From Candidatus Saccharimonadales bacterium (GTDB lineage Bacteria; Patescibacteriota; Saccharimonadia; Saccharimonadales; UBA4665): a DNA stretch of 64,000 nt. The DNA lies in contig DASYZQ010000008.1 of the NCBI GenBank assembly GCA_035946175.1, forward strand, positions 1,177 through 65,176. The letters run 5' to 3'. Below are positions 2,590 to 29,015 of the stretch, in pieces (positions within the stretch are counted from its first letter, which is position 1; the number at the start of each line of letters is the position of its first letter). The notes beneath the pieces were generated by a model that saw only the letters and a list, made by a program, of their open reading frames with translations, ran no database searches and was not told where the DNA came from. Made by a program: the position numbers and the translations under genes.

Positions 2590-3174
2590 TTACGACCAAG
2601 CCGCATCGAACAGCCTGGAAATCAGTGGCCGGTAGATAAATACTGTCATACTCAATCCGCAGCCAATGATATACAGCTGAAACACCGATACAGCGCTGAC
2701 AGGATAAGTTATCAGGGTCAGGAAAGCCGCCCCGGCACTGGTCAGATAAAACCACGGTGACTCAGAACGGGGCTGCCGCCATGTTTTTACAAACGCCGGC
2801 ACATAGGCGGCAAAGTCGCCGACGATACCTCCCCAAACTCCAATAATAGGGTTGCTAGTAAGTGCCCAGGCAGTGATACCCAGTAGTGCAATCATAAGGC
2901 AAGCCCAATCGAGTCTGGCCCTGCCGCCTATACCCCGCCATAGGCTCAATCCAAAGATAACAATTCCCTGCAAGCAAAAAATACTCGTCAGCAGTAGCGC
3001 ACCTGGATTGCCGTGTGCGGCTACAGCTCCGACGAATGTAACTGCCAGCACAATCATAAGCGCAAACCGGGTCATCCGGTGCGGCCGAGATTTACCACGA
3101 ACAATGCTAACAATGTAGGTTATCGGGGAGATGAGCGCCAACATAAGGCTGGCAGTAACGAGAGCACCATGCAT
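2590..3174 (-). CDS. polytopic membrane protein, unknown family
   Basis: 194-aa ORF with about 6 hydrophobic segments. It lies 6 nt downstream of the preceding same-strand gene. Confidence 0.55.
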   Translation of the reverse strand: MHGALVTASLMLALISPITYIVSIVRGKSRPHRMTRFALMIVLAVTFVGAVAAHGNPGALLLTSIFCLQGIVIFGLSLWRGIGGRARLDWACLMIALLGITAWALTSNPIIGVWGGIVGDFAAYVPAFVKTWRQPRSESPWFYLTSAGAAFLTLITYPVSAVSVFQLYIIGCGLSMTVFIYRPLISRLFDAAWS

Positions 3175-13459: not shown

Positions 13460-14491
13460 CTATTTCCAGGCCGCTAGAAATTGTCTCTCATGGCGCTTGA
13501 CGACCTTGTCAGAACCGAGCAGCCCATGCTTTGACATGTCAGGCGAATATCTGCTCGCCGGAACAGTGCGCCCTAAGGCTTCAGCCATGGCCCGGACATG
13601 GTGCGGAGCCCCACCGCAACATATACCTATATAATTGACCCCTATATCCTTAGCTTCCATGGCAAATTCGGCCATTTCCCCCCGTGTGCATAAGAAGGAA
13701 TCTAGGGATAACGGAAAGGCATTCACGCCCTTATACTTCAGAACATGAAAGTTAGGATGCCTAGATGTCGTATGGTATGGCACTGGCTGTGCCGCAATGG
13801 GGCAAGAGACAGTTTTACGCAGTCTTCTTAGAAGTGGTAGCATCGTTTTAGGTCCACGTATGCAGTTAAATCCAACTACATCGGCACCGTTCGCTTCGAG
13901 CAACCGGCAGCCCTCCACCCAATCATAGCCATCTTTGCTCTTAGGGTATGCCGCACCAAAGGTGACTAATGCCGGCAGTTGATATTTCTTTATAACCCCC
14001 AAAGCAATGAGCGCCTCGCCTATATATCCAATGGTCTCAGCGATAATAAAATCGGCGCCCTCTTCGGCGGCCCAGCGTACTTGCTCATCATACATTTGAC
14101 GAACGATAGCCGAAGTATGCTTTTTGTTAGCCGGATCATACACCCAGGTATTACAGATATTGCCAGCAACGAGAACATCGTTCCCTTCGGCAATCTCTTT
14201 CGCGATTCGAACCGCTTGCCGATTCAGCTGTTCCAAGTCCTTTTCTCGGTCAATAATGCGCAACTTATCCCGGTGCGCATAGTAGGTGAATGCCACCAAT
14301 ACCTCACTGCCAGCTCGCAAAAACTCTCTATGTAACTGGCGCAGCGCGTCCGGATGGTCTAAAACCACTTCAGGCACATACGCTCCAGCCTTAACGTAAC
14401 CGCGTCTCTCAAGTTCAAATAGGTAGCCTTCGGCCCCAAGTACAGTGCCTTCTTGTAACCTCTCCACTAAGCCATGCTTTATGTGTGACAT
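13460..14491 (-). CDS. betaine-homocysteine S-methyltransferase-type (Pfam S-methyl_trans) methionine-forming enzyme
   Basis: ERRGYVKAGAYVPE and LRQLHREFLRAGS closely resemble BHMT. Zn ligands GFNC and ICCGG are present. ATG 14491 (MSHIKHG) is preferred over TTG 14506. Confidence 0.85.
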   Translation of the reverse strand: MSHIKHGLVERLQEGTVLGAEGYLFELERRGYVKAGAYVPEVVLDHPDALRQLHREFLRAGSEVLVAFTYYAHRDKLRIIDREKDLEQLNRQAVRIAKEIAEGNDVLVAGNICNTWVYDPANKKHTSAIVRQMYDEQVRWAAEEGADFIIAETIGYIGEALIALGVIKKYQLPALVTFGAAYPKSKDGYDWVEGCRLLEANGADVVGFNCIRGPKTMLPLLRRLRKTVSCPIAAQPVPYHTTSRHPNFHVLKYKGVNAFPLSLDSFLCTRGEMAEFAMEAKDIGVNYIGICCGGAPHHVRAMAEALGRTVPASRYSPDMSKHGLLGSDKVVKRHERQFLAAWK

Positions 14492-14528
14492 AACAAATTT
14501 CCCCAAGAAGAATTATTTGAATACAATC

Positions 14529-14596
14529 AAAAAACTGGCCCTAGGCCGGTTATTGTATTCAGATATTCTATAACGATCAGGATATCGGCCTAGGGC
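14529..14596 (-). terminator. candidate attenuator terminator in the methyltransferase leader
   Basis: An 11-bp stem with 9 GC pairs (14596..14586 pairs with 14548..14538), then CAG and UUUUUU (14534..14529). It lies between a promoter and the gene start. Confidence 0.5.
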
Positions 14597-14639
14597 ACAG
14601 CATAACCATCATCATAATCTGTGAGTTGCAAACAAACAT
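14577..14639 (-). CDS. candidate Met-rich leader peptide MFVCNSQIMMMVMLCPRPIS
   Basis: 20 codons, with 4 of the 5 codons 9-13 being AUG. Codons 15-18 form the 5' arm of the terminator stem. Confidence 0.45.
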   Translation of the reverse strand: MFVCNSQIMMMVMLCPRPIS

Positions 14640-14646
14640 GAGCTGA

Positions 14647-14675
14647 AGTATACAGCGGCCTGACGTATTGGACAA
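14647..14675 (-). promoter_or_regulatory. candidate promoter TTGTCC-17 nt-TATACT, 7 nt before the leader-peptide ATG
   Basis: Read on the minus strand. This geometry implies a leaderless transcript. Confidence 0.4.
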
Positions 14676-14713
14676 TGTTAGAGCGAAAGACATTTTTTAC
14701 GATTTGAGGTTCT

Positions 14714-14742
14714 TTGCGCTTCTACTTCGACTCCGATACAAT
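14714..14742 (+). promoter_or_regulatory. candidate promoter TTGCGC-17 nt-TACAAT for the CNNM gene
   Basis: Read directly, about 65 nt upstream of ATG 14808 (SD GAGGAAAG). Confidence 0.4.
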
Positions 14743-14807
14743 AAAAAGCCTATGGTTGCAGTGCAACTGGCGAGAGTAGGACGACAAACGAGGAAAGTGC
14801 AATTGTT

Positions 14808-15788
14808 ATGGTAACTGTGATTGCCGTTATCGCGCTCGTCGTTTTTTCAGCAATTTGTTCAGGTCTTAATGTCGGCTTGGTATCACTCGACGAAGGGGAC
14901 GTCCGACGCAAGGCCAAGCTCGGCAATAAGTTCGCCCGCCAAGTACTACCGCTTCGCACTAACCTGCATCTTAGTTTAGCCGGTATTCTGCTATCAAATA
15001 TCGCGAGCATTACCGGCACATCACTGGTATTGAATAACCGATTTAATGGCGTTGTTGCCGAGATCGCCAGCACGCTGCTTATCGTCATCTTCGGCGAGAT
15101 TCTACCGCAGGCCCTCTTTGCGCGTTACGCGCTTAGGTTCTGCGCCCGTCTGGCACCGTTGCTGCGTCTTATGATCGTTGTCACATACCCAATCGCTAAA
15201 CCGCTACAGCTGCTGTTGGACCGATTATTCCCATATGAGCAGCCACATCTGCAGACGCGCAGAGAGCTGGGTCTTATCATGGCCGAGCATGCGGCAGCCG
15301 AGGAAAGTGAACTTGACGAAGATGAAGTTGAAATTATTCGTGGTGCTTTGCTGTTGAGCGAAAAACGAGTACAGGACATAACGACGGAGCTACGGAAGGT
15401 CTACTGGATGAGCCCAGAGACATCCATCAATGCAAGCAAGATTGACGAGATCAAGCAAAAAGGCTGGAGCCGTATTCCAATTCTCAACCGTCAACGAACA
15501 ACCTGTTTTGGTATCTTGCTCATGAAAGATCTCGTCGATATCGACTTCGATAACCACACCCACAAGGTTGAAGACCTGCCGCTCTATCCCACCCAAATCG
15601 TCGGCAGTCGAACAGCGCTGGATACGCTGTTCCGAAAGTTTATCAATGGCGGTATACATCTCTTTCCGGTCGAGCAGAATGACCAGATTATCGGTATTGT
15701 TACTATTGAAGATCTACTTGAAGAGATTGTCGGTCATGAAATTGAAGATGAAACTGATCGCCTTCGGAAAAAACATCGACACAGTTAA
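14808..15788 (+). CDS. CNNM/DUF21 transmembrane domain plus CBS-pair protein (CorB/TlyC-like)
   Basis: N-terminal FSAICSGLNVGLVSLD DUF21 signature, followed by a CBS pair. Confidence 0.85.
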   Translation: MVTVIAVIALVVFSAICSGLNVGLVSLDEGDVRRKAKLGNKFARQVLPLRTNLHLSLAGILLSNIASITGTSLVLNNRFNGVVAEIASTLLIVIFGEILPQALFARYALRFCARLAPLLRLMIVVTYPIAKPLQLLLDRLFPYEQPHLQTRRELGLIMAEHAAAEESELDEDEVEIIRGALLLSEKRVQDITTELRKVYWMSPETSINASKIDEIKQKGWSRIPILNRQRTTCFGILLMKDLVDIDFDNHTHKVEDLPLYPTQIVGSRTALDTLFRKFINGGIHLFPVEQNDQIIGIVTIEDLLEEIVGHEIEDETDRLRKKHRHS

Positions 15789-28830: not shown

Positions 28831-28855
28831 TAGTAAAATACCCCTAAGAAGTTTT

Positions 28856-28890
28856 AATACCCCCTCGAGTTATCTCAGGGGGTATTTTAT
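28856..28890 (+). terminator. rho-independent terminator
   Basis: AATACCCCCT-11 nt-AGGGGGTATT followed by TTAT. It sits between convergent genes. Confidence 0.7.
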
Positions 28891-29015
28891 ATTCTTGCAA
28901 AGACAACTCTACTTTTATCCTTGAGCTGGGCAACGAGGCGCATTCCAAGCAGCTTGGTATATACCGACTGCCTCGTTAAGTTAATCTATCCCACCTATAG
29001 CTTCATGAGGAGGTT

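Follow-up and report, generated by a model that had tools for sequence, protein, structure and literature searches.

A putatively leaderless, methionine-codon-rich ORF upstream of a homocysteine S-methyltransferase gene in Patescibacteria, a candidate methionine attenuator

Attenuation by a translated leader peptide is textbook knowledge for Trp, His, Phe, Leu, Thr, and Ile/Val, while the known forms of methionine gene control are SAM or SAH riboswitches, Met T-boxes, and protein repressors. An attenuator built on a run of AUG codons would therefore fill the methionine gap among the amino acid attenuators. Leader candidates for Cys have been reported (Seliverstov et al. 2005, PMC1262725), and the same comparative survey placed methionine under riboswitch control, with no RNA element for methionine in Actinobacteria (PMC1262725). 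In Streptomyces lividans TK24, a leader named "metL" was annotated upstream of metNIQ (PMC8079986). Like the element described below, it was put forward as a leaderless, methionine-dependent leader peptide, but its peptide MSTTSDRTPATEATTTPGARCMCRRMCAF contains just two internal Met residues, which are not adjacent, its authors report no typical terminator, and the paper offers neither comparative nor experimental support (PMC8079986). Beyond this annotation, no described Met-run attenuator was found in the literature, which was covered mostly without subscription journals. A first-pass annotation of the present DNA had likewise named no characterized AUG-run attenuator; an earlier description is possible.

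The leader and its pairings in the window

The window, the whole 64-kb stretch of DNA that was analyzed, belongs to a Candidatus Saccharimonadales (Patescibacteria) genome and contains a gene for a homocysteine S-methyltransferase family protein of 343 aa (13460..14491; Pfam PF02574, E = 5e-42); this gene and all features described below lie on the minus strand. The product was 100% identical to an NCBI protein from a Candidatus Saccharimonadales MAG, and among the NCBIfam models those of the BHMT and MetH types matched it below threshold only. A Shine-Dalgarno-like GGGGAAA that probably serves the gene was read from the sequence at 14498..14504. Upstream of it, between two divergent genes, lies the leader element. 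The sole promoter-like site in a scan of the minus-strand intergenic region consisted of a -35-like hexamer TTGTCC (14670..14675) and a -10-like hexamer TATACT (14647..14652), with 9/12 matches and a 17-nt spacer, the latter hexamer ending 7 nt before the leader ATG at 14639. This layout was as claimed in the first-pass annotation when the minus strand was read again, and the position of the putative -10 box implies a leaderless or near-leaderless transcript.

The ATG at 14639 opens a 20-codon leader ORF, MFVCNSQIMMMVMLCPRPIS followed by TGA (14577..14639), to which 16 analogous ORFs in related loci correspond. Its putative regulatory run comprises AUG at codons 9, 10, 11, and 13 (14601..14615), so that both the ORF and the annotated four AUG among codons 9 to 13 were present where they had been placed. 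Elsewhere in 873 kb, searched in six frames, at least 4 AUG per 7 in-frame codons occurred about 10 times. In the program-made ORF list, the frame begins at an upstream in-frame ATG, 14693 (38 aa); this start was rejected, since the only promoter-like site lies downstream of it and relatives did not conserve the extra codons.

Codons 15 to 18 contain the segment GCCCUAGGCCG (14586..14596), termed R2, which lies 6 to 7 nt before the stop codon and is perfectly complementary over 11 bp to CGGCCUAGGGC (14538..14548), with 37 nt between the arms. The existence, coordinates, and 9 GC pairs of this previously annotated stem were borne out by an inverted-repeat search; among the 25 longest pairs listed, few were spaced perfect repeats of at least 11 nt with arms at most 60 nt apart. 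The 3' arm spans R3, a loop, and 3 of the 4 nt of R4. R3 and R4 themselves form a predicted intrinsic terminator hairpin (14533..14551), recognized in folds and also flagged as a palindrome by a scan of the plus strand. Its core is GGCC (14547..14544), a UAG loop, and GGCC (14540..14537), extended by AAC/GUU across a C.A mismatch. The hairpin is weak in the window, the core alone giving -4.6 kcal/mol and the extended form -7.2 kcal/mol, and this copy may be leaky. A U6 run lies at 14529..14534, 45 nt after the leader stop codon. The annotated succession of CAG and U6 after the 11-bp stem was confirmed, the distance from U6 to the ATG at 14491 being 37 nt where about 40 nt had been given.

A second pairing of 9 bp, which had been annotated as mutually exclusive with the 11-bp stem, proved to be real and longer, but it does not compete with the terminator in the classical manner. 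In the inverted-repeat search, UAUCUGAAUACAAU (14552..14565) and AUUGUAUUCAAAUA (14514..14527, downstream of the U-run) were paired at 13/14 nt (14565..14552 with 14527..14514), and this outer stem covaries in the related loci L161 and L001. It is an outer extension within which both the U-run and the terminator hairpin lie. Inside one 85-nt leader stretch, two of the longest spaced repeats of the 64-kb window are interleaved.

Other identities for the element were examined within the window. The sequence GCCCTAGGCCG was found there only at the two stem arms, and its matches with at most 2 mismatches numbered 13 versus 17 expected by chance; a dispersed repeat (REP or MITE-like palindrome) was rejected because the arm sequence had no further copies in the window. 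Rfam 15 gave no match to the whole window at the gathering score, and at E values up to 10 the region 14400-14900 gave only chance matches (snR40 and SpF22). These scans ruled out a SAM/SAH riboswitch, a T-box, or a known leader family in the window.

Recurrence of the leader in related loci

Collection of the upstream regions of related orthologs, a check suggested in the first-pass annotation, yielded Met runs with competing stems at 17 places. Fifteen of these copies lie upstream of PF02574 orthologs or their operon (the window, L081, L082, L001, L004, L005, L006, L008, L161 to L164, L166, L171, and L172) and two upstream of other genes, namely, a DUF2000 gene in L001 and an unknown gene in L171. 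The window, L161, and L001 were assigned to one subtype, the window subtype, and the other 14 leaders to subtypes B and C. A relaxed scan of 902 kb in six frames detected 122 Met runs, of which 16 had a nearby stop codon and terminator; all 16 were these leaders, and within the window there was no second Met leader. No Met-run mini-ORF was found in the upstream regions of about 150 more distant ortholog loci.

The leader ORFs ranged from 15 to 26 codons in length, and all 17 contained 3 to 5 AUG within 4 to 7 codons. The promoters resembled those of sigma-70: TTGACA-like -35 hexamers were present in 11 to 12 of the 13 leaders examined, and the start codon followed the -10 box at a distance of 6 to 10 nt in 11 of the 13, or in 12 if L162 starts at an in-frame GTG. 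R2 was recognized as a G-rich segment in the last codons, ending 3 to 12 nt before the stop codon (16/17), and the stop codon was separated from the U-run by 40 to 54 nt (17/17). A hairpin-plus-U-run terminator was found in every leader, with energies of -7.8 to -14.7 kcal/mol in the 16 leaders other than that of the window. In L161 and L001, the two leaders closest in structure to that of the window, the terminator reads CCGGCC-UAG-GGCCGG (-12.6 and -14.6 kcal/mol), with C-G where the window has its C.A mismatch, and forms a 6- to 7-bp hairpin immediately before a U-rich tract. This geometry stayed constant while the leader sequences were very divergent across the 17 copies. In most leader peptides, an Arg codon precedes the C terminus.

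The mini-ORF might also act otherwise, as a nascent-peptide sensor of Met or SAM, as a Met-rich small protein, or by control of translation or mRNA stability. The Arg codon would fit such a role, but its presence is explained by the RNA, where it forms the start of the G-rich R2, and the peptides were not conserved except for the Met run. Conservation of the outer stem in the window subtype is another point in favor of such a role, as its 3' arm follows the U-run and so cannot serve termination there. The mycobacterial leaderless polycysteine sORFs, moreover, work on translation (bioRxiv 10.1101/834739). For the present leaders, no Shine-Dalgarno-sequestering pairing was noticed in the folds, which were run for other purposes, and all 17 have a terminator at a fixed distance together with a competing antiterminator. 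A function of this other kind was judged quite improbable.

The genes behind the leaders were found to fit the metabolism of the sensed amino acid. Besides the PF02574 genes themselves, a MetC-like PF01053 gene shares the operon with the PF02574 ortholog in L001 and L161; tblastn of the 64-kb window detected no DUF2000, MetC-like, or partner methyltransferase gene. Orthologs also carry SAM-I riboswitches (RF00162), which occupy the same position as the Met leader in L011 (45.5 bits), L172 (46.2 bits), L009 (41.0 bits), and L170 (40.2 bits). In L172, a Met leader and a SAM-I riboswitch stand in tandem.

The proposed switch and tests of its pairings

In the first-pass annotation, the 11-bp stem with its 37-nt loop was taken to be the terminator, and a ribosome paused on the Met run was thought to mask its 5' arm. 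The stem is perfect, it is followed by U6 after 3 nt, it dominates both the MFE and the centroid structure of the free leader, and the short hairpin nested in it is, as noted, weak in the window. A 37-nt loop and a 3-nt spacer are, however, atypical of intrinsic terminators, and the related loci contradict the assignment. Throughout the other subtypes (14 leaders), R2 and R3 form a helix that stops short of R4, at least 10 nt from the U-run, and a separate canonical terminator comes after it; L161 and L001 likewise own a good hairpin adjoining the U-rich tract. Since the homologous helix does not extend into the 3' arm of the terminator, the 11-bp stem was reassigned as the antiterminator, and the terminator as the short GGCC-UAG-GGCC hairpin nested in its 3' arm and adjacent to the U-run. 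The masking step also failed on geometry. With codons 9 to 11 in the A site, the 5' arm starts 13 to 19 nt downstream of the A-site codon and is left free, and at codon 13 it is covered partly, while a ribosome at the stop codon would mask the arm too, leaving no clear "off" state. It is thus unlikely that the stem is the terminator, although some terminator activity may reside in it in the window subtype, where it ends 3 nt before the U-run.

The idea at the center of the annotation, a leaderless Met-rich ORF serving as an attenuator, was strongly supported by the 17 recurrences, their restriction to this gene neighborhood, and the alternation with SAM-I, while its structural and mechanistic details were not. 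The leader probably attenuates transcription by way of the ribosome, with the supply of charged elongator tRNA-Met as its measure of methionine, and comparison of the leader sequences supports this reading well. Transcription would start at or beside the AUG at 14639, as judged from the promoter geometry, and a ribosome, coupled to the polymerase, would translate the 20 codons of the leader without the aid of a Shine-Dalgarno sequence. Ample Met-tRNA would let the ribosome pass the AUG codons, reach the UGA at 14579, and cover R2 (14596..14586), so that the R3:R4 hairpin would form beside the U-run and RNA polymerase would terminate about 40 nt short of the enzyme gene. Under a shortage of Met-tRNA, the ribosome is predicted to stall with AUG codon 9, 10, or 11 in the A site, where R2 would stay exposed and could pair with the emerging R3, loop, and R4 to give the 11-bp stem. 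The terminator would thereby be blocked, and the polymerase would read through into the methionine-making homocysteine S-methyltransferase gene. The predicted physiology, read-through upon methionine limitation, is the same as in the first-pass annotation.

Folds constrained by the position of the ribosome behaved as a switch. With the ribosome at the stop codon, the terminator pair probability was at least 0.97 in 17/17 leaders; with the ribosome stalled at the first Met codons, it was at most 0.25 in 14/17, and 0.00 in the window. In the remaining three, L081, L164, and L004, the stalled-ribosome equilibrium fold kept the terminator with a probability of 0.5 to 0.98, and antitermination there would have to be kinetic. 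When the RNA was truncated before R4, R3 was paired to R2 in 17/17. The truncated folds containing R2:R3 had energies of -12 to -24 kcal/mol versus -4.6 to -14.7 kcal/mol for the terminators, R2:R3 being stronger than R3:R4 in all 17 leaders. The subtypes differed in the free RNA. Most leaders of subtypes B and C had a terminator probability of 0.9 to 0.99, while that of the window, L161, and L001 was 0.00, and their free RNA formed the antiterminator. No effective 1:2 protector or pause hairpin was found in folds of these three leaders, and for this reason their untranslated RNA is predicted to adopt the antiterminator. A lack of fMet-tRNA, and hence failed initiation, would then lead to read-through as well.

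The leaders were aligned with MAFFT in sets of 13 and 17, and RNAalifold on the 13-leader alignment returned only 3 consensus pairs. No usable consensus structure was obtained because the pairing register differs between subtypes, and column-wise covariation across the family was not demonstrable from the MAFFT/RNAalifold alignment. In the window, L161, and L001, R2, R3, and R4 are identical in sequence, so that covariation of the key helix is absent from those three loci. Per-locus shuffle tests and a register-free duplex test were therefore used in place of a covariance model. Between 0 and 7 of 300 dinucleotide shuffles equaled the truncated R2:R3 fold. Cognate R2-R3 duplexes had a mean energy of -18.1 kcal/mol versus -10.4 kcal/mol for cross-subtype combinations, and in 15/17 leaders the cognate R3 bound better than every foreign R3. 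In this register-free sense R2 and R3 co-vary, and both tests favor a selected R2:R3 pairing.

The same tests bear on whether the element regulates anything, as it might instead be a constitutive 5'-UTR structure or a terminator for neighboring transcription, with the Met-rich ORF a coincidence. Divergent flanking genes mean that no terminator is needed at this position, and coincidence would have to account for 17 independent copies with different sequences that were absent from controls, as well as for the signs of selection on R2:R3. The 169-nt leader as a whole beats its shuffles only modestly (z = -2.0), which is in keeping with a nonregulatory structure, but this explanation was considered very improbable.

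Implications and comparison with known systems

Patescibacteria are ultrasmall epibionts whose regulation is poorly understood, and the attenuator proposed here would rank among the first cis-regulatory mechanisms defined in them. Genetic tools are now available for Saccharibacteria (PMC10633639). We lean, by a little more than even, toward regarding the leaders as an undescribed class of Met-specific leaderless attenuators that controls a Met regulon in Patescibacteria, is interchangeable with SAM-I, and in the window subtype lacks the 1:2 hairpin. If this is correct, the regulon would be small, ribosome-sensed, and present in Saccharimonadales and other Patescibacteria, and it would comprise homocysteine S-methyltransferase, alone or together with a class-I methyltransferase, plus a MetC-like lyase, DUF2000, and an unknown Rossmann-like protein. 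The position of DUF2000 and the unknown gene behind the same leader would link them functionally to methionine metabolism; the literature, covered mostly without subscription journals, yielded nothing on DUF2000.

A methionine attenuator raises the mechanistic question that the sensed amino acid is also required to start translation of the sensor. In the window subtype, initiation failing for want of fMet-tRNA and elongation stalling for want of Met-tRNA would both result in read-through, and the missing 1:2 hairpin would thus solve the problem posed by methionine as the initiator amino acid. The exchange of Met leaders with SAM-I, together with the tandem in L172, would constitute a natural experiment on sensing of the SAM pool versus the charged-tRNA pool. 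In sister Patescibacteria, the SAM-I riboswitch governs the orthologous gene or operon, likewise via an intrinsic terminator and with the same logic of repression when the methionine/SAM pool is full. It differs in that its aptamer senses SAM directly and needs no translation, whereas the window has no aptamer according to Rfam.

The mycobacterial polycysteine sORFs (Canestrari et al.) resemble the Met leaders in being short ORFs with a codon run for one sulfur amino acid and in placing several loci of the cognate pathway under one type of element (a "ribulon"). They are leaderless, as the Met leaders may be, and a stalling ribosome turns their genes on, as is predicted for the Met leaders. 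In contrast to them, all Met leaders carry a hairpin-plus-U-run terminator and a competing antiterminator; stalling on polycysteine frees a downstream ribosome-binding site, whereas the Met leader would act on transcription termination (10.1101/834739).

With the classical attenuators of Proteobacteria (trpL, hisL, pheL, leuL, thrL, and ilvL), the Met leaders share a short ORF with a run of cognate codons, an intrinsic terminator before a biosynthetic gene, an antiterminator that uses the 5' arm of the terminator, and, as proposed, selection of the structure by ribosome position. Subtypes B and C also share the pairing of the regulatory codons with the stop-codon region (1:2). The Met leaders differ in the amino acid that they would sense, in appearing leaderless rather than Shine-Dalgarno-led, in their occurrence in a Patescibacteria lineage without a match to an Rfam family, and in that read-through, not super-attenuation, is predicted for untranslated RNA of the window subtype.

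The leader region and its relatives

On the minus strand, 316 nt separate the homocysteine S-methyltransferase gene (PF02574; 14491..13460, minus strand) from the divergent CNNM/CBS gene (14808..15788, plus strand). The methyltransferase matches a Candidatus Saccharimonadales MAG protein at 100% identity. Every feature listed in the first-pass annotation was present in the minus-strand spacer on inspection: a promoter-like site (TTGTCC, 17 nt, TATACT, then 7 nt to an ATG at 14639), a 20-codon leader ORF opening at that ATG (MFVCNSQIMMMVMLCPRPIS; AUG at codons 9, 10, 11, and 13), two perfectly complementary 11-nt arms (14596..14586 with 14548..14538), and CAG followed by U6 (14534..14529). The second pairing, described there as 9 bp, was also found but is longer, matching at 13 of 14 nt (14565..14552 with 14527..14514). 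A 38-aa reading from an in-frame ATG at 14691-14693, which begins 54 nt before the leader start, was rejected: that ATG precedes the promoter-like site, and related leaders do not conserve the added codons.

These features stand out in this sequence: two spaced inverted repeats that rank among the longest of the 64-kb window interleave in this region. The arm sequence of the 11-bp stem was not repeated elsewhere in the window, and a search of the leader region against Rfam 15 recognised no family. Also ranking among the longest in the window are two overlapping inverted repeats at 28834-28896, one of 20 nt at 80% complementarity and one of 11 nt, perfect (AAGAAGTTTTAATACCCCCT / AGGGGGTATTTTATATTCTT), possibly forming a terminator or some other alternative-structure element.

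Loci carrying relatives of the enzyme were collected from genome and metagenome collections (160) and by exact protein look-up (12), and at least four AUG in seven in-frame codons were sought in the 400 nt before the gene. Of the closer relatives (70 to 83% identity), only seven had such a run (L081, L082, L001, L004, L005, L006, and L008). None was found in approximately 150 more distantly related loci (from Chloroflexota, Ktedonobacteria, Methanosarcinales, and others), the negative control. Exact look-up gave seven further leaders (L161, L162, L163, L164, L166, L171, and L172), that of L171 lying upstream of a methyltransferase-enzyme operon, and a six-frame scan of all collected sequence added two copies before other genes (L001 and L171), for a total of 17 Met leaders, that is, Met-codon-rich mini-ORFs with an antiterminator/terminator. 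Their peptides include MIALKATRAMMMPMYMPSPRPIS, MVTNQSLTVEMMQMMYSSDCRGLLHA, MTASIAMMQMMMNSTKRRGLFS, MNKLSAKMMAMMMTPLRGNSL, and MTNNTRNMMMAMMPHREAEF. A relaxed scan (Met run, stop within 20 codons, terminator 15 to 85 nt later) found 122 Met runs in 902 kb; stop and terminator followed in only 16, all of them Met leaders.

Four MAG records with Patescibacteria-type enzyme genes (L005, L008, L009, and L020) are titled "uncultured Gammaproteobacteria". L005 and L008 carry Met leaders and L009 a SAM-I riboswitch (RF00162), elements also found in Patescibacteria-labelled contigs, and the taxonomic labels of these records look doubtful. The Methanosarcinales loci L012 to L018 have in common a highly conserved region approximately 200 nt upstream of the gene (...AAATTAAAAAGTCTCAAAAACACTTCGTAAACCTTAATAT...GGTGGAGAAATAGATCGGAAAAAAGGAC...), which could be an archaeal promoter with a structured 5' UTR.

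Genes and riboswitches associated with the leaders

The genes under the leaders fit methionine metabolism: besides the PF02574 enzyme, there are a MetC-like PF01053 lyase, found downstream in L001 and L161, and a methyltransferase that recurs as a partner. The latter, of class I (Methyltransf_25/11), very often adjoins the enzyme gene in either order on the same strand (L162, L163, L165, L167 to L172, L081, and L082), which suggests that the two form a conserved functional pair. In L165, the enzyme gene follows an S-adenosylhomocysteine hydrolase gene. The second leader of L001 (2254-2380; TTGATA-17-TAGAAT, 7 nt, an ORF encoding MTNNTRNMMMAMMPHREAEF, and the terminator CCUCCG...CGGAGG plus U6) lies upstream of a DUF2000 gene (PF09391; 2393-2806), itself upstream of the leader-enzyme-MetC-like unit. 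The position of this leader links the uncharacterised DUF2000 family to methionine metabolism; a literature search on DUF2000 found nothing. The extra leader of L171 (2595-2715; MDNIIINMMKMMQFPQKEDLL, terminator AAGCCUCC...GGGAGGCUUUUUU) precedes a gene (2720-3172) that runs off the contig, has no Pfam match, and carries a GLGAGNLG Rossmann-like motif.

The swap of one pathway regulator for another at orthologous genes is a classical comparative signature of a regulatory element. In sister Patescibacteria, orthologous genes or operons carried a SAM-I riboswitch followed by a terminator at the position of the Met leader. Two scored above the Rfam threshold of 44.4 bits (L011, 45.5; L172, 46.2) and two just under it (L009, 41.0 bits, E = 4e-8; L170, 40.2 bits, E = 2e-6), while L167 and L168 were SAM-I-like by eye only. 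In L172 (~790-1110), one enzyme gene is preceded by a Met leader (MRIASTTFVMNMMAS) and a SAM-I riboswitch in tandem, both having a promoter-like site and a terminator of their own.

Leader anatomy and the modelled fold switch

The leader nucleotide sequences formed three barely alignable subtypes: the window subtype (window, L161, and L001) and subtypes B and C (the other 14). Their geometry was constant. The -10 hexamer of a sigma-70-like promoter ended 6 to 10 nt before the start codon in 11 of the 13 leaders examined, a count that rises to 12 if the L162 ORF opens with an in-frame GTG located 6 nt past the -10 box. As this leaves no room for a Shine-Dalgarno sequence, the leader ORF, judged from sequence, is probably leaderless. 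A G-rich segment in the last ORF codons (R2) began 10 to 17 nt after the Met run and ended 3 to 12 nt before the stop codon in 16/17 leaders. The terminator hairpin (R3:R4) was followed directly by the U-run, 40 to 54 nt past the stop codon. R4 has approximately the sequence of the R2 core, and R3 is complementary to both, e.g., GGGAGG / CCUCCC / GGGAGG, CCGAGG / CCUCGG / CCGAGG, and, in the window, CUAGGCC / GGCC(UAG) / GGCC.

Each leader was folded from its start codon up to the base preceding the U-run, and 28 nt were barred from pairing to mimic a ribosome. With the A site at the stop codon, the terminator-pair probability was at least 0.97 in all 17 leaders (window, 0.99); with the A site at either of the first two Met codons in the run, it was at most 0.25 in 14 (window, 0.00), R3 being paired to R2 instead. 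When the RNA was cut just before R4, mimicking transcription in progress, R2 sequestered R3 in 17/17. In every leader, the fold containing R2:R3 (-12 to -24 kcal/mol) had a lower energy than the terminator (-4.6 to -14.7), and dinucleotide shuffles of the upstream segment did as well in only 0 to 7 of 300 trials per locus. In a register-free test, cognate R2-R3 duplexes averaged -18.1 kcal/mol versus -10.4 across subtypes, and 15 of the 17 leaders paired better with their own R3 than with any foreign one. The antiterminator co-varies at the whole-helix level. In most B and C leaders the AUG run also pairs with the stop-codon region (1:2 pairing), so that their untranslated RNA would terminate, as in trp. 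Free RNA of the window subtype folds into the antiterminator, and here initiation failure under methionine starvation would also lead to read-through.

The 11-bp stem had been taken as the terminator. By homology and geometry it is instead the antiterminator: the B and C counterpart of this helix stops before R4, and an ordinary terminator comes next. In the window subtype, the complementarity of R2 extends beyond R3 to the loop and part of R4; the stem therefore ends 3 nt before the U-run and, with its 37-nt loop, resembled a terminator. The hairpin adjoining the U-run in the window is GGCC-UAG-GGCC (minus strand), which with an AAC/GUU extension across a C.A mismatch reaches -7.2 kcal/mol. 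Since the corresponding CCGGCC-UAG-GGCCGG of L161 and L001 is more stable (-12.6 and -14.6 kcal/mol), the window copy is the weakest of the 17 terminators and possibly leaky. A ribosome paused at Met codons 9 to 11 had been thought to mask the 5' arm of the stem. The arm starts 13 to 19 nt downstream of the A-site codon and so stays free, and it is a ribosome at UGA that covers it. This reverses the earlier masking argument, while the proposed physiological outcome stays as it was.

The second pairing, previously viewed as an alternative to the terminator stem, is an outer stem enclosing the terminator hairpin and U-run (14514-14527 / 14552-14565). It was conserved with three compensatory pairs in L161 and L001, the only other loci of the subtype. 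It was 93% paired, versus at most 48% when slid, in a test of low power, as 32 of 500 shuffles reached the observed value. The composite hairpins of the subtype had energies of -16.8 to -24.1 kcal/mol (z-scores, -4.1 to -5.6). Because the 3' arm is transcribed only once the U-run has been passed, the outer stem cannot aid termination there; candidate roles are resetting of read-through RNA, mRNA stabilisation, and a processing site.

Comparison with known systems

The original observation was confirmed in sequence, and its interpretation held for the nature of the element but not for the terminator helix or the action of the ribosome. The element is likely to be a methionine-sensing, ribosome-mediated transcription attenuator; all of its mechanistic steps beyond sequence, thermodynamics, and comparison are ones that we infer. 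In the searchable literature, which is incomplete so that an earlier description may exist elsewhere, the one related entry was an untested "metL" annotation in Streptomyces lividans, whose two Met residues are scattered and which lacks a terminator (PMC8079986); no Met-run attenuator turned up in the other searches. According to one comparative paper, methionine falls under riboswitches and not attenuators (PMC1262725). In its logic, the element most resembles the mycobacterial leaderless polycysteine sORF, which acts on translation, not termination (10.1101/834739; PMC1262725). The Met leader would work like the classical leader-peptide attenuators, and their testable defining features were found in it, except that the window subtype lacks the 1:2 hairpin. 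It differs from them in three respects: which amino acid is sensed, a start that is probably leaderless, and the lineage of the host.
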